The translations under genes were made by a program, and so were the position numbers. A stretch of DNA of 64,000 nucleotides from IMG/VR virus record IMGVR_UViG_2648501802_000002, one strand, 5' to 3'. Under the pieces are notes generated by a model that did no database searches, was not told where the DNA came from, and was given only the letters and a program-made list of their open reading frames with translations. This DNA comes from a virus. Taxonomy: Duplodnaviria > Heunggongvirae > Uroviricota > Caudoviricetes. Of this stretch, positions 6,143 through 63,984 are shown piece after piece; positions within the stretch are counted from its first letter, which is position 1, and every line of letters starts with the position of its first letter.

Positions 6143-9100
6143 TCAGCTGATACTGATGCCTGCGGTGGCTTTCTTCATCACCACAACCAGCAAATCGCTG
6201 ATACTTGCTGTGGGATACCAGCCATTTACCCACCATGCTGATACCGAAAACTCCAGTGTCATTACGCCACTGCCTGCAGGCATATCAATAACACCCGTGT
6301 AAATCAGAGTATTATCCAGAGCCGTTCGGTTATAAATTTCAGCCCCGTTTTTCTTCACTATCAGGCGGCATGACGAATAAGTATCGCTATTCTCCCGTTC
6401 ATGTCTGGCACCGCTGAAAGCCACCGCCGGGATAACAATTTGCCGGTCAAACGGCTGATCGTCATAAACCCTGACGGTAATGGTCCCTGATGGCCACCGT
6501 TCCGGTGCACGGGAGTCACGGGGGAAAGCTTTGCCCACTGTTTTAACGAGATCGCCTTCAATCTGGTTCGCGGACAGTTTTCCCAGAACCCGGCAGTTCT
6601 CGTTAATCGTGACGTTGTTGAGCGTCCCGGAGTTCGCATTCACGTTACCGCTGATATCGGCATTTTTTGCCGTCAGCCGCCCGTCCGGTGTCAGGGAAAA
6701 TGCCGGAGGATTACCGCCGCTGGTAATGGTGGGAGCCGTCAGATATTTCAGGAACACTTCATTCATAAATATCTGATCGCCCTGACCAACAAACATCGGC
6801 TTTGTGTTGCCATTCGCAGGATTAATCATCGCAATCCTGTCCGCCGCCAGCAGCACCTGACTCTGCATACCGTCAGGGGTATTCTCAATACCGGCACCAA
6901 TACCCGCGATATAAAGGCGTCCGTCCTGCATCTGCTGCAGCTTCACAGCCCACATGCTGTTCAGGTTATTATTTGTATCAACCTGAACCTTCTGTATCTG
7001 CTGAATTGCCGCACTCTGGTCTTCCAGTTTCTTATTGACGGTCTGCGTGATTTCATTGCTGACATCCGTAATGGACGTCCTGATTTCAGCCAGGTCAGGC
7101 GCAAGCTGACCGTTATCAATCTGCGTCCACAGCTCCTGAGCCAGATGGCTTTTCCCTATCTCTCCTTTGAAAAAATCCAGATAGCCGGATGCATCATCAC
7201 TCGGCTGGCCAACAGCCTCCACAAATGCCGATTTGCCAACGGTGTTCACACTGCGGATGTAAAAATAATAATCATGGCCCGGTTTGATATTGATACTGGC
7301 GGCTATCCAGTACAGCGCCGTGCCAAGATAGCGGGCTGTGGTTTCAACCTGCCTGATATCGGTAATCCGCTTTTCCGAGAACCAGAACTCAAACTGTACC
7401 GTCGGGTCATAAATGGCAAGATGCGGCGTGGCGGTTATCTGAAAATAGCCCGGCGTCAGCTCAATCCTCGACGGTGCTGCCGGTGCGGCAATCCGGAACG
7501 ATACCGACGCCGCATCGCCCTGCTGCCCCCACGCATTTACCGCCCGGACTGTCAGCCTGTAGTTCCCCAGCGCCAGTTGCGTGAAGCGGTATGTGGTTTC
7601 CGTCGTCCGGGCCGTGCTGACCAGCCGCTCACTGCCGTCGTCCGCTGTTACGGTCAGACGGAGCAGGAAGCTCACGCCCTTCACCACCTTCGGTGTGTCC
7701 CATCGCGCCAGCACCTGATATTCCCCGCTGTCTGCAGTGACTTCTGCGGTCAGGTGCTGCACCGCTGGCGGCGTGACACCATTCACCGTGCCACTCTGTT
7801 CGCCGTCAAAGTGCGCCCCGTTATCCACGATGGCCTCTTTTTCCGGCACATGCTGCACGGCGGTGATGGCATACGTGCCGTCGTCGTTCTCACGGATACT
7901 CACGCAGCGGAACAGGCGCTGGCGCAGCGTCGGCAGCTTCAGCCCCCATACGCTGTATTCAGCAACACCCTCAGGAACACGGCTCACTTTTACCTTCACG
8001 CCGTCGTTGACGGACTGAACCTCCACGCTGACCGGATTGCCACTTCCGTCAACCAGGCTTATCAGCGTGGTACCGGAGGATGGCAGCGTGATTTCACGGT
8101 CGAGCGTCAGCGTCCGGGTCTGGCTGTTCACCGCCAGCACACGACCACCGGTGCTGATACCGGCATAGTCATCATCGCAGATTTCAATAACATCGCCCGG
8201 TACATGGCGAAGCCCTTCTGCGCCGACGCTGAAATCCACGGTCTGCGTCTCCAGCAGCTCCGTTTTAATCAGCCACAGCCCGGCGCGGTGTGCCTGCCCC
8301 CGGCTGGTACAGCCAAAGGCATCCATCTTCGTAACATTACGACCGTAACGGGCAATGGCCTGCGTATCTTCAACAAGCTCTGTCGCCGTCTCCCAGCCGT
8401 TGTCCGGGTCAATCCAGTTCACCTCAACGGCATTATGGCGGTCTTTCAGGGCGCTGAAGCTGTAGCGGAACGGCGCGCCATCATCCGGCATCACCACATT
8501 ACTGCGGTTATAGGTCCACGCCTTATCCGACGGTCGGTCCTGCACGAACGTCAGCGTCTGCCCGTTCCATACCGGCATACAGCGCATCGCCGAGCAGAAA
8601 TCACTGAGAACGTCCCACGCCTTGCGCTGTGTGGTCAGGTACGCATTACAGGTGATGCGCGGCTCCGTGCCGCCAAAGCCGTCCGGCACTGACTGGTCGC
8701 AGTACTGGCCGATGACATACAGCGCCCATTTGTCCACATCCGCCGCACCAAGACGTTTCCCCATGCCGTAGCGCGGATGGGTCAGCATATCCCACAGACA
8801 CCAGGCCATGTTGTTGCTGTATGCTGGCTTAAACGTTCCGTCCCAGATACCGCTGTATTGTCGCGTCTGCGGGTTATAGTTCGACGGCACCTGCAGAATG
8901 CGCCCGCGAAGATGATAATTACGACTCACCTGCTGGCTGCCGAACTGCTCCGAGTCCACCTGTACGCCGACCAGTGCCGTGTTCGGGTAGCACTGTTTCA
9001 CATCGATGATTTCGGTGTATGACGACCAGAGCGTTTTGTTCTGCAGCTGGTCTGTGGTGCTGTCCGGCGTCATCCTGCGCATCCGGATATTAAACGGGCG

Positions 9101-9409
9101 CGGCGGCAGGTTATCCACCACCACCGAGGCCAGATACTGCGAGGTGGTTTTGCCTTTAATGGTGATGTCTTTTTCCGTCACCCAGCCACCGTTACGCTGT
9201 ATCTGAACCAGCAGGCGGACTTCCGACGGATTCCGGTCCCCCTTTGAGGTGGTTTCCACCAGTGCCTGCACACCGAAGGTAAAGCGCAGACGGTCGATGT
9301 TTGCAGACGTGATGGTCCGGGTAATCGGCGTGTCGTACTTCACTTCCGTACCCAGCACCGTCTCGGAGCCGGAGGATTCAAATCCCTCCGGCGGTGGCTG
9401 TCGTAGCAA
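6143..9409 (-). pseudogene. J: Tail tip host-specificity protein J, 5'-truncated (about first 45 codons missing)
   Basis: Matches lambda J from [21 protein letters not shown] onward; upstream codons diverge and hit an in-frame stop at 9425-9427; ORF-track start is a TTG. Confidence 0.8.
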
Positions 9410-9513
9410 ATTCTGCGACCGGGTTTAGCAGCCTGAATGATTGTGCGGACAGCCGCAGATATCCGATATTGCGGTATTTTTGTGTCCGTAAAACCGCGTT
9501 ACGCCCAAATTAT

Positions 9514-9590
9514 GGTGGGGCGTGATGGGGAGGCTTCGGCCTGCTGGTTTCACAATCGCCAGTCTGCTAACCCCGTCACGTCCTGCCACC
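9514..9590 (+). ncRNA. c4: Candidate c4-type antisense RNA (immI)
   Basis: 77-nt element closed by GGTGG...CCACC; contains cacaatc and ctgctaac complementary to gattgtg/gtttagcag copies upstream (9423-9445) and at the icd RBS (9592-9632). Confidence 0.45.
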
Positions 9591-9640
9591 TGTTTAGCAG
9601 CGGGTAGCAGGTTGTTAAACCTGATTGTGAGGCCGTAACT

Positions 9641-9862
9641 ATGGTTAATGCCAATCCTTGCGCACGCCCAGAATTCATCTGGCGTTTCTATTCCTGTAAA
9701 AAACACCACTATCACTTCGTTATCGCAGCAACTGAAGACGAAGCACGCTCTCAATTGCCTGATGGCCCCTGCATTTTTACTGCCCGTTTTTCAACTAACT
9801 CGCGCAATTCACTTAGTTACTGGAACCTCCCCTTCTCTGCCGACGTTCAGGGGGGTTTATGA
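9641..9862 (+). CDS. icd: Icd-like small protein upstream of antirepressor
   Basis: 73-aa ORF overlapping ant start (ATGA), preceded by c4-like targets; layout as P1 immI. Confidence 0.55.
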   Translation: MVNANPCARPEFIWRFYSCKKHHYHFVIAATEDEARSQLPDGPCIFTARFSTNSRNSLSYWNLPFSADVQGGL

Positions 9863-11250
9863 AAAAACCTCTCGTCACCCGTAATGAAATAGCCGAAGCG
9901 ATCGCCCTGCATACAACCTGTATGCCGACACGGGAGATCCCCGGCGCAATTGCCAACTATTTCATGATAACCAGGCGTTTTTATACCCGAACAGATAAGG
10001 CTGTGATCAACAAGCTACTGATAGCCGAGATCAGGGATTATTTGATTGAACAAGGACGTCTACGTTACGCAACAGTGGCAGCAGAAATGAGAAAGGAGGC
10101 ACATAGAATGACCGGTAATAATTTAAATGTTGAAAAAACAGTACCTGTTACGTCAGCTACGCCAGCACCAGCCGTGAATGTCATCCCCAACACCGGAGAC
10201 ACAATCGACAGCCAAACATTGTTGAAGATGGTCAATGAGGCACGTAAGTTATGTGGAGAACCAGAGGTTAGAAACAATAAATTCATCGAAAAAATACTCG
10301 ATGAACTTGAAGGTGAATTTTACACAAAAAGTGCAAAATCCCATGGCACAAGGGCCGGGCGCTCTTTTGAGGTCATAACCATGACCTATAAACAAGCCCT
10401 GCGAGTCGCCGCACGCGAATCAAAAGCGGTCCGCCGTTCGCTACATACCATGATTCAGTCATTGGAACCTATAAATGTAGAAAATCAGCCTGATGAAATT
10501 CCCGTTCTGGAATGGCAGGGAGTACGCGTCGTGACAACCGAGACTCTTGCTAGAGGGTATGGCACTACACCTATTCGTATTCAGCAGAACTACAATCGCA
10601 ATGAAGAACGATTTGTAGAGGGTAAACACTTCTTTAAAATCAAAGGAGATGAGATAAAAAGTTTGCGACTATCTTTTAGCGAGTTGCAAATTTCCCCCAA
10701 GACCAGATCCTTAATACTCTGGACCGAACGCGGAGCGGCACGCATGTCTAAGATCGTAGACACAGAGCAAGCGTGGGCATTCTTTGAAAAACTGGAAGAC
10801 AGCTACTTCCGGCAAAAAGAACAGCAACCGGTCACAATCCCCCAAACATTACCAGAAGCTCTACGCCTGGCTGCCGAGTTGGCAGAGCAGAAAATGCAGT
10901 TGGAACAACAGCTGGTGGCCGCAGCCCCTAAAGTAGATTTTGCCGACCGGGTATCAGTGGCTAATGGAATCCTGATCGGGAACTTTGCAAAGGTCGTTGG
11001 ACTTAAGCAAAACGCCCTTTTCTCATGGTTGCGCCAGAACGGCATTCTCATGGCTTTTGGTGCGCGCAAAAACGTACCGCGCCAGCAGTACATTAACGCC
11101 GGGTATTTCACGGTGAAAGAAGTGGTGCTGGATGATGAAAATGGCTACCAGATACGGCTGACGCCCCAATTAACGGGTAAAGGCCAGCAGTGGTTAACTC
11201 GCAAGCTACTTGATGCTGGTTTGTTAAAACCAGTGGCGTCCTTGTCTTAA
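9859..11250 (+). CDS. ant: Antirepressor (ORF6N domain plus KilA-C domain)
   Basis: Central IPVLEWQGVRVVTTETLARGYG... and C-terminal PKVDFADRVSVANGILIGNFAKVVGLKQN...GYFTVKEV motifs. Confidence 0.85.
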   Translation: MKKPLVTRNEIAEAIALHTTCMPTREIPGAIANYFMITRRFYTRTDKAVINKLLIAEIRDYLIEQGRLRYATVAAEMRKEAHRMTGNNLNVEKTVPVTSATPAPAVNVIPNTGDTIDSQTLLKMVNEARKLCGEPEVRNNKFIEKILDELEGEFYTKSAKSHGTRAGRSFEVITMTYKQALRVAARESKAVRRSLHTMIQSLEPINVENQPDEIPVLEWQGVRVVTTETLARGYGTTPIRIQQNYNRNEERFVEGKHFFKIKGDEIKSLRLSFSELQISPKTRSLILWTERGAARMSKIVDTEQAWAFFEKLEDSYFRQKEQQPVTIPQTLPEALRLAAELAEQKMQLEQQLVAAAPKVDFADRVSVANGILIGNFAKVVGLKQNALFSWLRQNGILMAFGARKNVPRQQYINAGYFTVKEVVLDDENGYQIRLTPQLTGKGQQWLTRKLLDAGLLKPVASLS

Positions 11251-14492: not shown

Positions 14493-14674
14493 TACACCCG
14501 CTGCGGTGTGCTTGGGGCTATCAGCTTCAGGTATTACCCGAAAAGCAGATAGAAGAAAGCCCCAGTAAACATTATGCGTCCCGCACAACGCTTAACATTA
14601 ACCGGGGCCATACCTATGCTTAGCGTACTTAGATTAATCCTCTCCTCTGTCAAGGAGCAAGGAATTTTTTACTG

Positions 14675-15271
14675 CTATGCCGCCTTTCCAGTTATGGATT
14701 CTGCGACAAGAACAACCCCATGCTTACTTCGATCCGGATGTTCACTCCATATCTCGGATTCAGGAATACTTTCCCCGTCATAGCAAACACGTTCGCCATC
14801 AAATGGGTAATACTGAGCAGTATCGGTGTCCAGGATAAAAACTTTTAGTTCGGAAGAACGACGAGCGATGTGCTGCCAAAGAGCTTTTCCACCTTCGTAT
14901 TGCTCATTATCACTGAGCAAAACAACACCAGCTTTTGAGGCTACGGTTTCGTAAACAAAAGTGGCTAAACCGACATCCCGGACGATTCCATCAACCACGA
15001 TACCTTCAATCTGGGCAACATCGCTATCCTCCCAGAACTTCCTTACCAGTACGCCTTCAAGCTGCGGGCGACGTTGAAGTTCAAGAGTAGCGACAACCTT
15101 ATGCCGCATATCACCATCGATAACAGAAGGCGCAGCCTCTATTACAGCTGCAAATGGGGTTTTGGAATCCCATATAACCTGGTAAAGCACACCCTGGATG
15201 GTAACGCCGTCCAGGATCGAAAATCGACGAGCGACAGTACCCGGGGAGTACGACATTGGAATCACAGCCAT
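14675..15271 (-). CDS. Hypothetical protein
   Basis: ATG at 15271 with AAGGGGGA RBS; no family recognised. Confidence 0.45.
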   Translation of the reverse strand: MAVIPMSYSPGTVARRFSILDGVTIQGVLYQVIWDSKTPFAAVIEAAPSVIDGDMRHKVVATLELQRRPQLEGVLVRKFWEDSDVAQIEGIVVDGIVRDVGLATFVYETVASKAGVVLLSDNEQYEGGKALWQHIARRSSELKVFILDTDTAQYYPFDGERVCYDGESIPESEIWSEHPDRSKHGVVLVAESITGKAA

Positions 15272-33118: not shown

Positions 33119-33194
33119 GATGGTGTAGCTCAGCGGTTAGAGCGGTTGACTGTTAATCAACGGGTCGATGGTTCAAATCCATCCACCATCGCCA
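33119..33194 (+). tRNA. tRNA-Asn (anticodon GTT)
   Basis: Cloverleaf: acceptor GATGGTG/CACCATC, anticodon loop CTGTTAA, T-loop TTCAAAT, 3' CCA. Confidence 0.9.
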
Positions 33195-33196
33195 AT

Positions 33197-33272
33197 GCCG
33201 GTTTAGCTCAGTTGGTAGAGCGCCTGCCTTGTAAGCAGGATGTCAGCGGTTCGAGTCCGTTAATCGGCACCA
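33197..33272 (+). tRNA. tRNA-Thr (anticodon TGT)
   Basis: Acceptor GCCGGTT, D-arm GCTCAGTTGGTAGAGC, anticodon loop CTTGTAA, T-loop TTCGAGT, 3' CCA. Confidence 0.9.
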
Positions 33273-34796: not shown

Positions 34797-34872
34797 GGCC
34801 CTTTAGCTCAGTGGTTAGAGCTGGCGACTCATAATCGCACGGTCACCGGTTCAAGTCCGGTAGGGGCCACCA
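34797..34872 (+). tRNA. tRNA-Ile2 (anticodon CAT, ileX-like)
   Basis: Near-identical architecture to E. coli tRNA-Ile2 (GGCCC(C)TTAGCTCAGTGGTTAGAGC...CTCATAA...), 3' CCA. Confidence 0.85.
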
Positions 34873-57088: not shown

Positions 57089-58282
57089 GTGACCTGGGAC
57101 GATCACAAGAAGAATTTTGCTCGCCTGGCGCGAGATGGTGGTTACACCATCGCACAGTATGCCGCCGAGTTTAATCTTAACCCTAATACCGCACGTCGTT
57201 ATCTCCGTGCCTTCAAAGAAGACACCAGGACTGCGGACAGCCGCAAGCCAAATAAGCCAGTCAGGAAGCCACTAAAAGGCATGATCATTGATCACTCTAA
57301 TGATCAACATGCAGGTGATCATATTGCGGCTGAAATAGCGGAAAAACAGAGAGTTAATGCCGTTGTCAGTGCCGCAGTCGAGAATGCGAAGCGCCAAAAT
57401 AAGCGCATAAATGATCGTTCAGATGATCATGACGTGATCACCCGCGCCCACCGGACCTTACGTGATCGCCTGGAACGCGACACCCTGGATGATGATGGTG
57501 AACGCTTTGAATTCGAAGCTGGCGATTACCTGATAGATAACGTTGAAGCGCGGAAGGCCGCGCGCGCTATGTTGCGTCGGTCCGGGGCCGATGTTCTGGA
57601 AACCACTCTTCTTGAAAAGTCTCTTTCTCATCTCCTTATGCTGGAGAACGCCAGGGATACGTGTATTCGTCTGGTGCAGGAAATGCGCGATCAGCAAAAA
57701 GACGATGATGAAGGGACTCCGCCTGAATATCGTATCGCGAGCATGCTAAACAGCTGTTCCGCGCAGATAAGCAGCCTGATCAACACCATTTACAGCATCC
57801 GGAATAACTATCGAAAAGAAAGCCGGGAGGCGGAAAAGCACGCTTTATCTATGGGGCAAGCTGGCATTGTTAAGCTGGCATACGAACGAAAGCGTGAAAA
57901 TAACTGGTCAGTGCTGGAAGCAGCTGAATTCATCGAGGCGCATGGCGGAAAAGTGCCGCCCCTGATGCTGGAGCAAATCAAAGCCGATCTGCGTGCTCCT
58001 AAGACCAATACCGATGATGAGGAAAGGCAAACAGCCGTCGGTGGCCCTTCTCTTGAAGATCTGGACAAAGTTGCGCGAGAACGGGCTGCCAACCGCCGCG
58101 CCGATGCCGCATTGTGGATTGAGCAGCGTAGGGAAGAAATCGCCGATATCGTTGATACAGGCGGTTATGGAGATGTTGATACTGAAGGTGTATCAAACGA
58201 CCCATGGCTGGAACAAGACCTGGACGAAGACGAGGAGGAAGACGAAGAAGTTACCCGCAAGCTATACGGGGATGATGATTAA
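57089..58282 (+). CDS. pacA: Terminase small subunit PacA
   Basis: 397 aa matching P1 PacA; GTG start with GAAAGGAAG RBS. Confidence 0.85.
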
Positions 58283-59766
58283 TGGCCAGAAGTTGCGTAA
58301 CGGATCCACGTTGGCGCGAGCTGGTGGCGCTATATCGTTATGACTGGATTGCTGCCGCTGATGTTTTGTTCGGCAAAACACCTACCTGGCAGCAGGATCT
58401 GATTATTGAGTCTGTGCAGGAACAGGGTAGCAAGACATCTGTTTCGTCTGGTCACGGTACCGGGAAATCAGACATGACTTCTATCATGATCATGTTGTTC
58501 ATAATCATGTATCCCGGTGCCCGCGCCATTATCGTTGCGAACAAAATTCAGCAGGTAATGACCGGTATATTCAAGTACATCAAGATAAACTGGGCTACTG
58601 CCACCAGCCGTTTTCCATGGCTTGCTGATTATTTTGTTCTGACAGAAACCGCTTTCTATGAGGTTACTGGTAAAGGTGTATGGACTGTAGTACCGAAGGG
58701 CTTTCGTCTGGGAAGTGAAGAAGCTCTCGCCGGTGAACACGCAGATCATCTTCTGTATATTATCGATGAAGCCTCCGGTGTCAGTGATAGAGCTTTCGGT
58801 ATCATCACTGGTGCTCTTACCGGACAGGATAACCGCATCTTATTACTGTCACAGCCTACACGCCCAAGCGGCTATTTCTACGATACTCACCATAAACTGG
58901 CCAAGCGTCCTGGTAACCCTGATGGCGTTTATACGGCGATCACGCTTAACAGTGAGGAATCACCGCTGGTAACGCCAGCATTTATCAAAATGAAGCTGGC
59001 GGAGTACGGCGGGCGTGATAACCCTATGTACATGATTAAGGTACGCGGACTATTCCCTAAATCACAGGATGGCTTCCTTCTTGGACGTGATGAGGTTGAA
59101 CGTGCGACGCGGCGGAAAGTCAAGATTGCCAAAGGATGGGGCTGGCTTGCATGTGTGGACGTTGCTGGTGGTACAGGACGGGATAAGTCCGTTATCAATA
59201 TCATGATGGTGTCCGGCCAGCGAAATAAACGCCGTGTAATCAACTATCGAATGCTGGAATACACAGACGTTACAGAAACGCAGCTTGCCGCCAAAATTTT
59301 CGCAGAATGTAATCCTGAGCGATTCCCAAATATCACCATAGCGATAGACGGCGATGGGCTGGGTAAAGCAACGGCGGATCTGATGTACGAGTATTATGGT
59401 ATTACCGTACAGCGCATACGCTGGGGTAAAAAGATGCATAGCCGTGAAGATAAGAGCCTGTACTTTGATAAACGTGCTTATGCCAACGTTCAAGCCGCAG
59501 AGGCCGTAAAATCTGGTCGTATGAGACTGGATAAGGGTAATGAAACTATTGAGGAAGCGTCGAAAATCCCTGTAGGGATTAACTCCGCAGGTCAATGGAA
59601 GGTGATGAGTAAGGAGGATATGAAGAAAAAACTCAACCTGCACTCACCAGACCATTGGGATACATATTGTTTCGCTATGCTGGCGGATTATGTTCCCCAG
59701 GACGAAGTGCTTAGCGTCGAAGACGAAGCGCAGGTTGATGAAGCTCTGGCATGGCTTAATGAATGA
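58282..59766 (+). CDS. pacB: Terminase large subunit PacB
   Basis: 494 aa; Walker A-like [10 protein letters not shown]; overlaps pacA stop. Confidence 0.9.
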
Positions 59767-59769
59767 ATA

Positions 59770-59786
59770 CTTGCTCTAATAAATTG
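59770..59786 (+). promoter_or_regulatory. C1 operator-like site after pacB
   Basis: cttgctctaataaattg, 15/17. Confidence 0.5.
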
Positions 59787-59917
59787 TGTTTTTTAACTGC
59801 CGATGTTACATTGAGCCTGACCTCTTGCGCCTTGAGGCATTTTCGGTTTATGCTTATCAGGCACCTCAGTAAAACGGGTGCCGGGATTGAGACCCCGGAT
59901 AATGCAAAAGGCGACAC

Positions 59918-59941
59918 AGACGCCAAAAGCGTCTTTTTTTG
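59918..59941 (+). terminator. Rho-independent terminator after pacB
   Basis: agacgc-caaaa-gcgtct hairpin plus T7. Confidence 0.7.
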
Positions 59942-59974
59942 TGTCATGCCATCGCACAGCCATACGTAGCGTTT

Positions 59975-60075
59975 AGCTCAGAGATCAATGGTAGTGCTGG
60001 CTGGGCTGCCGAAAGGCAGGCCGGTTCCCTTTTGCGCCGGTAGTCTCAACCCAGTCAGTGCTACCGCCATTGAGA
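59975..60075 (+). ncRNA. Possible second c4-type antisense RNA (divergent sequence)
   Basis: Long-range pairing 59985-59999 with 60055-60071; caatgg complementary to ccattg at the icd-2 RBS. Confidence 0.3.
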
Positions 60076-60125
60076 TTGAGACCTCACGCGGTAGCTCCTT
60101 AAATTAGCAAAAGGAGGCTGCCATT

Positions 60126-60347
60126 GTGGCTACTATCCCTACCCCAGCTCATCCTGAATTTATCTGGCGCTTTTACTCCTGCCAAAAACGTCACTATCAC
60201 TTCGTTATTGCACCGACAGAAGATGAGGCACGTTCTCAGCTTCCGGATGCTCCCTGTATTTTCTCTGCCCGCTTTTCTACCGATTCGCGCAATTCTCTCA
60301 GTTACTGGTGCCTCCCTGTTAACGCTTCTGCTCAGGAGGGACTATGA
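60126..60347 (+). CDS. icd: Icd-like small protein, copy 2
   Basis: 73 aa, paralogue of 9641..9862; GTG start after AAAGGAGG. Confidence 0.5.
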   Translation: MATIPTPAHPEFIWRFYSCQKRHYHFVIAPTEDEARSQLPDAPCIFSARFSTDSRNSLSYWCLPVNASAQEGL

Positions 60348-61446
60348 GAACGTCATTAGTCACCCGTGAAGAGATGATCGAGGCAATTGAACAGCACACT
60401 GCCTGTATCAGTACCAGGGATATACCGGGCGTTATTGCCAACTACTTCATGATCACCAAACAACTTTACCGGAGAAAGGACAAATACGCGGTTCACCGCA
60501 TTCTGCTAACCGATATCCGTGAATACCTGCTCGAACAGGGTCATCTGAATTACGCAACCGTCGCAGCCGAAGCACGCAAGGAGGCACACAGAATGAAAGC
60601 AACTAACGTTAAATCAGAAAAAATTTATGCACCTTCAGTTCAGGAATCGGAACTGGTGGTTGTTCAGAATCAGCCGGATGAAATTCCCGTTCTGGAATGG
60701 CAGGGAGTACGTGTCGTGACAACCGAAACTCTTGCTAGAGGGTATGGTGTCGATGAAGCCAATATTCGCAACAATTTGTCTCGCAACCTTGACCGCTTTG
60801 AAGAAGGTAAGCATTACTTTCTTCTAACTGGTTTAAAATTAAGAGAATTTAAGAACAGAGTAACCGGAAGTTACTCTGTTGGTAAGAACGCCAGAAGCCT
60901 TACACTCTGGACAGAGCGCGGCGCTGCACGCATGTCTAAGATCGTGGACACAAATGAAGCATGGGCATTCTTTGAAAAACTGGAAGACAGCTACTTCCGG
61001 CAAAAAGAACAGCAACCGGTTGCAATCCCCCAGACGCTTCCAGAAGCTCTGCGCCTGGCTGCCGAACTGGCTGAACAAAAGAACAGAAAGCCCACCAGCT
61101 AAATCAGCAGCTGGTGGCCGCCGCTCCTAAAGTCGATTTTGCCGACCGGGTATCAGTAGCTAAAGGGATCCTGATTGGGAATTTTGCAAAGGTTGTTGGA
61201 CTTAAGCAAAACGCGCTGTTTGCCTGGTTACGGGAGAACGGCATCCTGATAGCGTCCGGTGGACGTAAAAATGTGCCGTTCCAGCAGTACATCAATGCGG
61301 GGTATTTCACGGTGAAAGAAGTGGTGCTGGATGATGAAGATGGCTACCAGATACGGTTGACGCCTCAATTAACGGGTAAAGGCCAGCAGTGGTTGACGCG
61401 TAAACTGCTCGATGCTGGCTTGTTAAAACCGGTGGCGGCTGAATAA
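60344..61446 (+). pseudogene. ant: Antirepressor copy 2, split by a frameshifting indel between ORF6N and KilA-C parts
   Basis: ORFs 60344..61102 and 61114..61446; net +11 nt palindromic segment at about 61085-61115 relative to copy 1. Confidence 0.55.
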
Positions 61447-61478
61447 TGGAAGAATGCCCGGTTGATGCCGGGCATAAT

Positions 61479-62330
61479 TTATTGCGCGCTTTCGGGGTTG
61501 TCGTTTACTGGCTGCCCCTTCTTGGTTTTACGGCTGCGCGTAACTGATGCGGCTGACTTAACCTTTTTCTCTTCGCGAGTGATGGCAATTTGTTTTTTTA
61601 CATTTTCAATATCTGCCAGGCGATATATTTTTGCTTGCGGCCAGCGGTCGCAGATGATCGGTTCTATAGAGTCATAAAGGCTAAATTTTGCTTTCTCGAA
61701 TTCACCGTTGATGATGATTCCATCACGGAGAGTTTCATCGCAGATAAACACGCCACACAGCGGTACATGGTAACTAACTGATTTACCATCATTGTAGTTA
61801 GGGCTACTGGAGATGTAGTGGACGCGCAGCATTGTTTCGCTAAAGCCGTGTACACGCATACGGAATTTTTCATCCTCCGGGTACTGCCTCATTAGCTCTT
61901 TTGTTGCTTCCAGGTTCTCTATGTATTTCGCACTGTGCTCATTGATCCCCGCGCTTTTTTGGATGCGAATGTCCTTATCAATCAGATGAATAATGCGGCC
62001 AGCGGTCATGTTGACGCTGTTCACAGCTTCTGTCTGATAAGTTGTAACCTTGCGCACACCGCGAAGGATGTTAGGCACTGGATATAAAATAGTCTTTGGG
62101 ATATTGAGGTCTGGGTACTGTTCCAGTTCCCGCGCCATTAAAGTCCATTTATCAATTTCAGCCTGAATGCTGTCAGTTTCTTTGAACGGTAGAACGACAA
62201 CCGGGCGTACAGGACGACCGTCGCTGGCTGTATCAACGTGTTGGGCGCGTGCAACAGCTTTTTTTAGAAAGAGATCCCTGAAGCTGACGAACTCCTGGTA
62301 CAGTTGTTCGCCGTAGACATAATTTATCAT
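61479..62330 (-). CDS. c1: C1 repressor
   Basis: 283 aa matching P1 C1 (MINYVYGEQLYQEFVSFRDLFLKKAVARAQ...). Confidence 0.9.
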   Translation of the reverse strand: MINYVYGEQLYQEFVSFRDLFLKKAVARAQHVDTASDGRPVRPVVVLPFKETDSIQAEIDKWTLMARELEQYPDLNIPKTILYPVPNILRGVRKVTTYQTEAVNSVNMTAGRIIHLIDKDIRIQKSAGINEHSAKYIENLEATKELMRQYPEDEKFRMRVHGFSETMLRVHYISSSPNYNDGKSVSYHVPLCGVFICDETLRDGIIINGEFEKAKFSLYDSIEPIICDRWPQAKIYRLADIENVKKQIAITREEKKVKSAASVTRSRKTKKGQPVNDNPESAQ

Positions 62331-62424: not shown

Positions 62425-62441
62425 AGATTTATTAGTGCATT
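62425..62441 (-). promoter_or_regulatory. C1 operator-like site between coi and c1
   Basis: Reverse complement aatgcactaataaatct, 14/17. Confidence 0.4.
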
Positions 62442-62650
62442 TATTGTGAGTCCAACTGGTTAGTTGCCATGAGATATTCGATTGTGTCAGTGAGGTCATC
62501 CAGGTCGTCTTGGGTGATGCGGTACTCCTGATTGGATATCTTTGAGTAGTGTTCAGCAATGGCGCGGGCAGCGTCGGTTTCGGCAGGGTCTACAGATAAA
62601 GCGTTAGAGCAATGTCTAACGTCGTCGATGGTTGGTTGAATGAAAGCCAT
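62441..62650 (-). CDS. coi: C1 inactivator Coi
   Basis: 69-aa ORF immediately upstream of c1 on the same strand. Confidence 0.75.
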   Translation of the reverse strand: MAFIQPTIDDVRHCSNALSVDPAETDAARAIAEHYSKISNQEYRITQDDLDDLTDTIEYLMATNQLDSQ

Positions 62651-62905: not shown

Positions 62906-62959
62906 TGTCAAACAACTATGAAAAACAATCCAGTTTTTGTTTGATATTTATGGTGACAT

Positions 62960-63619: not shown

Positions 63620-63984
63620 ATGTTCATCAGAGCTTATTTAAGGGCATCAACGGAAGATCAGTTTGCCGATCGGGCAAAAGAGATGCTGGGGCAGTTTGTT
63701 CAGGAGCGGGGACATAAAATAGCCAGTTACTACCGGGAGAACATAAGCGGTACAAAACTCGACCGCCGGAACTGGGACGCTTACTGATGGACAGCCACCG
63801 CAATGATATTTTACTGGTCGAGCAAATTGACCGCCTGACCCGTCTGAGTAACAGTGACTGGATTACGCTGAAAAAGCAGATAGAACAACACGAACTGCGG
63901 ATTGTCGCCTGGATGTATCCACCTCATGGCAGGCGCTGTCAGATAAAGACCCTTCGCAGGCTGACCCAATCACCCGCGCCGTGA
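63620..63984 (+). pseudogene. Serine recombinase (resolvase-family) remnant with frameshift
   Basis: N-terminal FIRAYLRASTEDQ then, after a 1-nt frame change near 63756-63762 (ccgcc), LLVEQIDRLTR. Confidence 0.5.

Follow-up and report, generated by a model that had tools for sequence, protein, structure and literature searches.

A second P1 immI-type immunity operon in the pacB-c1 gap of a P1-like prophage, with an antirepressor gene probably inactivated by a 10-nt deletion

In this study, we consider it likely that positions 59770-61475 of the window (the whole 64,000-nt stretch analysed, from IMG/VR virus record IMGVR_UViG_2648501802_000002) form a second immunity operon of the P1 immI type, in which a 10-nt deletion has made the antirepressor gene ant' a pseudogene. 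The module is 1.7 kb long and belongs to a P1-like prophage, in which it is flanked by pacB, a packaging gene, and c1, which encodes the repressor. This interval contains the complete set of immI-type operon parts except an unbroken ant' (Table 1), and Rfam E-values of 1e-12 to 1e-15 place the matches above chance. A second c4'-icd'-ant' module had been proposed here by an earlier sequence-only reading, and the comparison of gene order with P1 and P1-like plasmids bore this out. In P1, only 24 bp separate the pacB stop from the c1 stop, whereas about 309 plasmids in PLSDB carry the module at this locus, versus 315 with the P1-type junction. Phages JL22 and RCS47 also have it at the same locus, and it is present in about half of P1-like phage-plasmids. 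At the boundaries of the insert relative to P1, no repeats or remnants were seen that would tell insertion from deletion. An ant insertion between pacB and c1 was already noted for pTZ20_1P and RCS47, in an account that covers two short ORFs and ant but neither RNA genes nor an operator nor specificity (Venturini et al. 2019, PMC6906374). The module is therefore of a known kind, a common accessory immunity operon, and ant' is here most likely an ordinary pseudogene. On its far side c1 ends at 61479, and the hairpin between the two convergent genes is likely a terminator shared by ant' and c1.

Table 1. Features of the module between pacB and c1 (positions in the window)
Feature	Position	Strand	Basis or remark
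C1 operator-like site CTTGCTCTAATAAATTG	59770-59786	+	directly after pacB stop
Putative constitutive promoter, P51b analogue	59825-59854	+	TTGCGC - 18 nt - TATGCT; read from sequence
Leader RNA, isrK / c4-a1b1 type	59861-59941	+	Rfam, fold, terminator scan
Leader site a1, TTGAGAC	59887-59893	+	in hairpin loop (fold)
Leader site b1, GCAAAAGG	59904-59911	+	single-stranded (fold)
Leader intrinsic terminator	stem 59918-59934, then T7	+	terminator scan
C4' antisense RNA	59984-60071	+	Rfam RF01695, 75 bits (gathering score 45); predicted fold
C4' loop b', CCTTTTGC	60028-60035	+	complementarity to b1/b2
C4' loop a', GTCTCAA	60043-60049	+	complementarity to a1/a2
icd' leader target a2, TTGAGAC	60076-60082	+	exact complement of a'
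icd' leader target b2, GCAAAAGG	60107-60114	+	exact complement of b'
icd', 73 aa, GTG start	60126-60347	+	ORF list; NCBIfam NF033153 phage_ICD_like, 49.8 bits
ant' 5' part, 252-aa truncated product	60344-61102	+	Pfam ORF6N; P1-Ant1-like N-terminus
ant' internal Ant2-like start	ATG 60593	+	after AAGGAGG 60578-60584; codon 84, position of the P1 ant2 start
10-nt deletion of GCAGCTTCTG, equivalently CAGCTTCTGG	61081/61082	+	alignment with intact relatives
ant' 3' part, out of frame	61082-61446	+	Pfam ANT/KilAC; about 83% nucleotide identity to P1 ant 3' end
Native 9-bp palindrome CCACCAGCT-N8-AGCTGGTGG	61092-61117		in interdomain linker
ant' premature stop TAA	61100-61102	+	ORF list
Longest 3' ORF, 110 aa, GTG start	61114-61446	+	no Shine-Dalgarno; GTG in hairpin 3' arm
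Hairpin ATGCCCGGTTGATGCCGGGCAT	61454-61475		terminator scan; between convergent ant' and c1

The operator-like 17-mer at the start of the module has two mismatches to ATTGCTCTAATAAATTT, and such C1-operator-like sites number 13 in the window against 0.37 expected. It aligns with Op51/P51a of P1 in the same geometry and is kept in relatives. The site overlaps a weak promoter-like pair (TTGTGT at 59784-59789 and TACATT at 59807-59812, spaced by 17 nt), and this arrangement suggests that C1 may bind here and that an overlapping promoter may be active. From the putative constitutive promoter further downstream, transcription would start near 59861, and the Rfam isrK match begins at this same position; phage D6 has TTGCGC - 18 nt - TATATT at the corresponding place. 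Both putative promoters match the consensus weakly (7/12), and a consensus promoter scan called neither of them. The leader matched Rfam isrK (RF01394) over 59861-59939 with 58.2 bits (gathering score 50), and c4-a1b1 with 22 bits only. The leaders of P1 and P7 match c4-a1b1 and also, below threshold, isrK; because these leaders match both families, we regard the two as homologous.

Following the leader, the C4-like RNA that had been read from the sequence was recovered by Rfam with a score well over the gathering score; the first copy in the window lies at 9508-9593, within the resident immI (copy 1, 9508-11250). The target region of C4' in the icd' leader was taken as 60076-60117, where b2 overlaps the icd' Shine-Dalgarno AAGGAGG (60111-60117). 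The sites a1, b1, a2 and b2 are all exactly complementary to the a'/b' loops of C4', and none of them matches the C4 of copy 1. Duplex energies of the C4 copies with the targets, calculated by RNAduplex, were uninformative because intramolecular structure is ignored, and exact complementarity and covariation were used in their place. Across 12 distinct sequences with 5 allele combinations, C4' paired with a2/b2 and with a1/b1 in 180 of 180 cells; one of the sequences counted here had itself served to build the pairing model. In 7 of the 15 C4'-site pairs both sides were changed across alleles, none of 500 shuffles reached the observed pairing, and slid controls paired at 25-56%. At least five a/b combinations occur at the pacB-c1 locus, and a1/b1 of the leader track the C4' specificity in every allele; in RCS47, for example, the b allele is a different one (GTCAAAGG) and C4 has changed to compensate. 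An annotated ORF of 39 aa at 59988-60107 ('ash family'; 29 bits to Pfam Phage_ASH) overlaps C4' and probably does not represent a gene.

As for the protein-coding genes, the icd paralogue was confirmed, with 53 of 73 residues of Icd' identical to P1 Icd. NCBIfam matches Icd', although a Pfam search gave no match, and PGAP named the identical protein of Escherichia coli ST2747 Icd-like. The icd' stop overlaps the ant' start as ATGA (60344-60347). Intact relatives encode a one-piece 370-aa Ant with ORF6N and KilAC domains and nested starts, but in the window the frame is broken at 61081/61082. The division of ant' into an ORF6N part and an ANT/KilAC part, with the break between the domains, had thus been seen correctly. 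For Ant' itself, NCBIfam gave no model and the PDB no sequence relative.

The cause of the split was different from the one first suggested, a net gain of an 11-nt palindromic segment. The alignment rules out a palindromic insertion: 10 nt are missing, and the palindrome is native, since every intact copy has it and reads it in frame as HQLNQQLVA. Its origin lies in Gln-Leu codons (CAG-CTN). As RNA it forms a hairpin within a centroid structure of -16.1 kcal/mol (61070-61135), with an MFE z-score of -2.2 for this segment as a whole. The deletion shifts the frame, so that Ant' ends after ORF6N and the KilAC codons are no longer read in frame; a pseudogene is thus the most likely status of ant', as in the decaying option of the sequence-only reading, and the truncated Ant' has presumably lost its function. 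Other decay is also found in the window: a truncated gpJ adjoins immI copy 1 at the position of that copy's promoter, and loxP-cra-cre is deleted.

It is unlikely that sequencing or assembly produced the split and that the real gene is intact. Copies elsewhere are indeed intact: the linker is undeleted in 59 of 60 IMG/VR copies and in 33 of 33 metagenome copies, and at least 139 plasmids have an intact copy at 90% identity or more. The window's deletion junction was not found by exact-junction scans of IMG/VR and metagenome contigs, and megablast of PLSDB gave no plasmid with this 10-nt deletion. Apart from the window, one record alone has this junction, the near-identical element of E. coli ST2747, in which PGAP calls the gene 'frameshifted'. 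The two records may not be independent witnesses, as no more than 3 mismatches separate them over 33 kb; moreover, the ST2747 assembly is patchy, contains many genes flagged 'frameshifted' or 'partial' and differs from the window at a homopolymer, and the window has unusual junctions of its own (gpJ to c4 at 9400). However, the clean loss of 10 nt is atypical of a read error, and it occurs in two records which differ in large-scale structure. Over 7.2 kb compared with a relative, it is the sole indel of the window, and at the one indel by which window and ST2747 differ, the outgroups have the same state as the window. Since the deletion is shared by a second record and no other indel accompanies it, a real mutation is likelier than a sequencing error. 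The sequence-only reading had held that an uninterrupted ant in relatives would indicate a local error; relatives at the locus do have the uninterrupted 370-aa gene, but the error is disfavoured by the deletion in ST2747.

Still less probable is a deliberate or tolerated two-part antirepressor, in which both the ORF6N and the KilAC fragments are made and the split was selected rather than being decay. Translation of the second part would proceed by re-initiation at GTG 61114, which lies 11 nt past the TAA, or by a -1 slip at A-AAG (61087-61090), where slippage of tRNA-Lys from AAG to AAA would, as read from the sequence, restore the native frame. The break lies exactly within the interdomain linker, P1 Ant acts naturally as two polypeptides according to its annotation (Ant1 and Ant2), and in L062, an independent lineage with another ant allele, 10 nt are deleted at a different site only a few bases off, leading to the same frame, TAA and downstream GTG. 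On the other hand, no Shine-Dalgarno lies 5-13 nt upstream of GTG 61114, which itself is in the 3' arm of the 9-bp hairpin. Programmed -1 frameshifting would call for a slippery heptamer with a structure 5-9 nt downstream; there is no X XXY YYZ heptamer but only the single A-AAG, and the hairpin (from 61092) begins 1 nt after the AAG codon (61088-61090). In addition, split lineages number only 2 among several hundred copies, and in other lineages ant' is inactivated otherwise, by a +4 duplication, a 1-nt deletion or an insertion. The earlier suggestion of a deliberately two-part protein therefore finds little favour, and we retain the pseudogene reading.

The deletion of L062 (IMG/VR contig 2737471840_000005) is a second, independent loss of 10 nt in the same linker, a recurrence that fits simple random decay poorly. 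An inverted repeat, CCAGAAGCT..AGCTTCTGG, was considered as the cause. Its 3' arm is removed by the window's deletion, but the repeat is imperfect in the L062 allele and so does not explain both deletions.

Regarding the origin of the module, its upstream RNA region is unlike that of copy 1, as had been noticed. The C4 of copy 1 is identical to that of P7, whereas the leader and C4 of the second module are 95.7% identical to those of phage D6; judged by its sequences (a = TTGAGAC, b = GCAAAAGG), the module's specificity is of the D6 type and that of the resident immI is of the P7 type. The module is a mosaic: its RNA part is of the D6 type, while both the Ant N-terminus and the KilAC domain are P1-like. 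As to where the module came from, the earlier option of a heterologous antirepressor module fits. That it is instead a diverged duplicate of the resident immI, which arose within this genome and is now decaying, can practically be dismissed: the copies share gene order, 54 of 73 Icd and 264 of 362 Ant residues and about 84% nucleotide identity at the ant 3' ends, but the RNA region and its a/b specificity are those of D6, the same locus and operator-like site recur in about 309 plasmids and in JL22 and RCS47, and at least five specificity alleles exist at the locus.

Compared with the known systems, the module is closest in organization to immI of P1 and P7. In this type of operon, C4 is processed by RNase P from the operon transcript, and Ant binds and inactivates C1. 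The order of operator (in the module an operator-like site), a1/b1 leader, C4, a2/b2 over the icd ribosome-binding site, Icd and ant is the same, as are the 73-aa Icd, the ATGA overlap, the nested Ant2 start at codon 84 and the site lengths of 7 and 8 nt, and at the protein level the KilAC domains share about 90% identity. The differences are the locus (sim-kilA there, pacB-c1 here), the a/b specificity, the leader (c4-a1b1 in P1 and P7, while that of the module scores as isrK and ends in an intrinsic terminator), and the protein, in that P1 Ant1 has another middle segment where the module Ant carries ORF6N, and the window's copy is frameshifted. RCS47 has the same locus and module, matching 91% of the region at 94% identity. 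The immI of phage D6 shares the a/b specificity, and its 95.7% identity extends from the leader and C4 over the first 62 nt of icd; however, its Ant is an unrelated Rha/Roi-type protein (25/95 identical), its promoter-proximal DNA differs, and no P1-type C1 operator is found there. In immI of P22 (sar - ant), a small antisense RNA keeps the antirepressor silent in the lysogen, but RNA and protein are unrelated to those of the module, and an icd-type coupling ORF is absent.

The isrK-orf45-anrP region of Gifsy-1 in Salmonella has in common with the module a leader in Rfam isrK and a terminated short RNA upstream of an antirepressor gene. In Gifsy-1, read-through gives the antirepressor mRNA, whose translation depends on an upstream ORF; no separate C4 RNA was described there, the pairing partner of IsrK is the 3' part of orf45, and AntQ acts as the downstream effector (Hershko-Shalev et al. 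2016, PMC4825925). In the module, by contrast, a full C4 RNA separates the leader from icd', and the loops of this C4 match the sites in the leader. The 39-aa ORF follows the leader like the short ORF of Gifsy-1, but it coincides with C4', whose loops that pair with the leader sites lie inside it, and it is not adjacent to ant'. No AntQ gene of the Gifsy-1 type is found upstream of the module, where pacB lies. A search of the literature turned up no paper that connects isrK with C4.

The working of the module can be proposed by transferring the established P1 immI mechanism to the intact relatives, with the covariation as support. Transcription would begin near 59861, with a further upstream promoter overlapped by the C1 operator. 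Most transcripts would stop at the leader terminator and give an IsrK-like RNA of about 80 nt with a1 and b1, and C4' would come from those that read through. Pairing of C4' a'/b' with a2/b2 of the same mRNA would then cover the icd' ribosome-binding site and block translation, and because ant1'/ant2' translation would be coupled to icd' by the ATGA overlap, it would be blocked too. Limiting or non-cognate C4' would allow both Icd' and Ant' to be made, and Ant' would inactivate the C1 repressor. The leader probably competes for C4', because a1/b1 are identical to a2/b2. In the window's copy, every RNA element and icd' are intact, and the module could still supply C4' immunity.

We also suggest, although we rate the two parts taken together as rather unlikely, that the linker is a recurrent target of selected deletion and that the IsrK-like leader is a trans decoy for C4'. 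If the former is true, such deletions would have been selected because they disarm or re-wire the module, leaving the ORF6N fragment and perhaps a re-initiated KilAC fragment. If the latter is true, the activator mechanism of Gifsy-1 IsrK and the repressor mechanism of P1 C4 would be joined in a three-RNA switch.

In conclusion, for the window itself the finding has little consequence, this being a common accessory operon with an inactivated antirepressor gene. For the family, about half of the P1-like plasmids have a pair of antirepressor operons under C4 control, and the RNA specificities of the two differ. The covariation of leader, C4 and target provides a clean natural data set for the rules of antisense specificity, and its three-way form suggests a link between IsrK-type leaders and C4 RNAs. 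The diversity of alleles bears on which P1-like elements, many of which carry antibiotic resistance genes, coexist, exclude or induce one another.

The window is a P1-like prophage in which the stop codons of pacB and c1, 24 bp apart in P1, are separated by 1,712 bp. This gap holds a second immI-type operon (module 2; its parts are written C4', icd' and ant'), composed as the sequence-only reading had described it, and the Rfam, NCBIfam and ORF evidence agree on these parts. Module 2 adds another example to a known class, the P1-type immI operon, here placed at a second locus; it has a precedent in the literature, since the pacB-c1 insertion was mentioned earlier with RCS47 named (Venturini et al., PMC6906374). 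In PLSDB, 309 plasmids carry the module at 80% coverage or more and 315 have the direct pacB-c1 junction of the P1 type, so the module is present in about half of the P1-like plasmids.

Features of module 2 and its surroundings (window coordinates)
Feature	Position	Strand	Remarks
Copy-1 immI C4	9508-9593		Rfam
pacA	57089-58282
pacB	58282-59766
C1 operator-like site CTTGCTCTAATAAATTG	59770-59786		directly 3' of pacB stop; 2 mismatches to C1 operator consensus
Second weak promoter-like pair, TTGCGC - 18 nt - TATGCT	59825-59854		putative
isrK-family RNA (leader)	59861-59939		Rfam, 58 bits (gathering score 50)
C4 antisense RNA (C4')	59984-60071		Rfam, 75 bits (gathering score 45)
b' CCTTTTGC	60028-60035		C4' loop
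a' GTCTCAA	60043-60049		C4' loop
a2 TTGAGAC	60076-60082		copy of leader site a1
b2 GCAAAAGG	60107-60114		copy of leader site b1
icd'	60126-60347		GTG start, 73 aa
ant' 5' part	60344-61102		252 aa, ORF6N
ant' 3' part	61114-61446		110 aa, KilAC/ANT
Hairpin between ant' and convergent c1	61454-61475
c1	61479-62330	minus
coi	62441-62650	minus

The operator-like site next to pacB is one of 13 in the window (0.37 expected) and, together with TTGTGT - 17 nt - TACATT, aligns with P1 Op51/P51a in identical geometry. From the second promoter-like pair, transcription is predicted to start at ~59861, the first position of the isrK match, and phage D6 has the same arrangement. We infer both promoters; a consensus promoter scan of the window called neither. 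For the leader, the predicted fold has two hairpins plus a terminator (stem 59918-59934, then T7), with a1 (TTGAGAC) in an 8-nt loop and b1 single-stranded. The a and b sites are 7 and 8 nt long, in lengths and order as the annotated P1 sites, and b2 overlaps AAGGAGG, the Shine-Dalgarno sequence of icd'. The icd' product matches NCBIfam phage_ICD_like (49.8 bits) and is identical to P1 Icd at 53 of 73 positions; the end of icd' and the start of ant' overlap in ATGA, and an internal ATG of ant' (codon 84, 60593), preceded by AAGGAGG, has the position of the P1 ant2 start. A 39-aa 'ash family protein' annotated by PGAP in relatives (window 59988-60107) coincides with the C4' gene and probably represents an RNA gene in translation rather than a real protein. 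The icd' leader also contains 6-nt complements to the P7-type C4 loops of the resident immI (copy 1), namely TTAGCA (60103-60108) and ATTGTG (60122-60127), the latter spanning the GTG start where other alleles use ATG; these could be fortuitous or could let the two modules cross-talk weakly.

Close relatives of Icd' were collected from 79 IMG/VR loci, and about 58 of them have pacB, the operator and an isrK-type leader upstream. At these pacB-type loci the a site takes three forms (TTGGCCT, TTGAGAC, TTGGAAC) and the b site also three (GTCTAAGG, GCAAAAGG, GTCAAAGG), with five combinations seen, and in all five a1 equals a2 and the complement of a', and b1 equals b2 and the complement of b' (G-U allowed). 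Across 12 distinct sequences, related to one another and including the one from which the pairing scheme was derived, C4' pairs with a2/b2 in 180/180 cells and with a1/b1 in 180/180, and 7 of 15 pairs are altered on both sides. None of 500 shuffles reached the observed pairing, and slid controls were 25-56% paired. This covariation and the site matches are evidence, at the level of sequence, for a functional RNA system in module 2. In Rfam, the P1 and P7 leaders score 51-55 bits with c4-a1b1 and 35-44 bits, below threshold, with isrK, whereas the module-2 leader scores higher with isrK than with c4-a1b1; leaders that score on both indicate that the two families are homologous. Classical immI loci with P1-type leaders (IMG/VR loci L076-L091) also have many specificity alleles, with TTGACAG or TTAGCAG as a site and b sites of at least five kinds (GTTAGTGA, GATTGTGA, GTACATGA, ACTTACGA, ACGAATGA), every one of them having a C4 loop to match. 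Three icd-ant modules lie 7-10 kb apart on one 42-kb contig (IMGVR_UViG_2698536372_000019; L020, L085, L090), several further contigs have two ~6 kb apart, and in phage D6 a second, sub-threshold C4-like Rfam match (L007, 2574-2653) lies upstream of immI.

The idea that module 2 duplicates the resident immI does not hold, as its RNA part is D6-like whereas the copy-1 C4 is identical to that of P7, with P7-type sites (TTAGCAG, GATTGTGA). Identity between module 2 and D6 immI is 95.7% across the leader, the C4 and the initial 62 nt of icd, but D6 Ant is unrelated to Ant'. The N-terminus and KilAC domain of Ant' are P1-like, and between them lies an ORF6N domain that copy-1 Ant has and P1 Ant1 lacks. 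Judged from these sequences, module 2 is a mosaic brought under a P1-type operator. Copy-1 Ant (463 aa; 9859-11250) is itself a mosaic of the two ant types, consisting of P1 Ant1 with 116 additional aa, an ORF6N segment homologous to that of the pacB-c1 Ant.

At the place of the split ant', a single Ant of 370-371 aa is found in pHNTH9F11-2, pSZL38.1, phages JL22 and RCS47, and NCCP 15734. Alignment to intact relatives reveals a loss of 10 nt (GCAGCTTCTG) from the window between 61081 and 61082. The split had been attributed to a palindromic insertion, but the palindrome (61092-61117) is in frame in every intact copy (HQLNQQLVA) and owes its form to Gln-Leu codons (CAG-CTN). The corresponding RNA is predicted to make a hairpin, part of the centroid fold of 61070-61135 at -16.1 kcal/mol (whole-stretch MFE z = -2.2). 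The earlier observation is confirmed in part, and its interpretation supported in part; the feature is a second-locus P1-type immI operon with a lineage-specific frameshift. No PLSDB plasmid has the deletion, its exact junction gave 0 matches in scans of IMG/VR and metagenome contigs, and a gapped pattern found the linker undeleted in 59/60 IMG/VR and 33/33 metagenome copies. A single one of 5,426 complete E. coli genomes, ST2747 (NZ_CP007394.1), shares it, in a gene labeled 'frameshifted' by PGAP. No more than 3 mismatches occur in the blocks, 33 kb in total, that the window shares with ST2747, and the large deletions of the two are not the same. Their 4.4-kb pacA-to-ant' block differs by one small indel, a T6/T5 run in which outgroups side with the window, and over 7.2 kb the 10-nt deletion is the single indel between the window and a close relative. 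We favor a real mutation in the window lineage over an artefact; the two records may not be independent. The ST2747 element (2144000-2192000 of a 'chromosome' record) is a patchy copy of the P1-like element seen in the window, beside a lambdoid prophage, with many partial or frameshifted genes and differing from the window mainly through indels; its state suggests assembly problems or advanced decay.

Lesions of ant' occur in other lineages too: L054 has a +4 duplication, 673R5 a 1-nt deletion and L032 an insertion between icd' and ant'. Another 10-nt deletion (TTCTGGAACA) lies in the same linker a few bases from that of the window, in a different ant allele with the same frame and stop (L062 2966 = L101; IMGVR_UViG_2737471840_000005). 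That a 20-nt linker has lost 10 nt twice, independently, points to either a mutational hot spot or selection. Programmed frameshifting is unlikely here, since a slippery heptamer is absent and the hairpin begins 1 nt past the AAG codon.

Elsewhere the window shows further signs of decay. Copy-1 immI (9400-11250) is joined at ~9397-9400 to an N-terminally truncated lambda-like gpJ (6143-9409, minus strand), exactly at the P51b transcription start, and therefore copy 1 lacks Op51 and both promoters. None of the complete E. coli genomes or plasmid records spans this junction, which may stem from illegitimate recombination in a chromosomal prophage or from an assembly join. Compared with close relatives, 1.6 kb holding loxP, cra and cre is missing at 62937-62938, and no loxP site is left in the window. 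The downstream serine recombinase is a pseudogene in the window (two ORFs, 63620-63984) and in relatives, annotated in NCCP 15734 as 'frameshifted; internal stop'. Rfam also identified a sok antitoxin RNA and three tRNA genes (14506-14679; 33119-33269 and 34797-34869).

In P1 immI, C4 blocks icd translation, which keeps the coupled ant off, and Ant inactivates C1. With the parts, complementarity and covariation observed here, and by analogy with P1, C4' would block icd' translation at b2/a2 and thereby prevent the coupled translation of ant', and where C4' is absent or non-cognate, Ant' would inactivate C1. Judging from its anatomy and from work on Gifsy-1 IsrK (PMC4825925), the terminated leader could be a competitor for C4' and, by that route, an activator. 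In the window, ant' is probably dead, because its product has lost KilAC and the 110-aa ORF lacks a Shine-Dalgarno sequence and has its GTG start inside a hairpin arm. The RNA parts of module 2 and icd' are intact, and C4' immunity may persist in this prophage.
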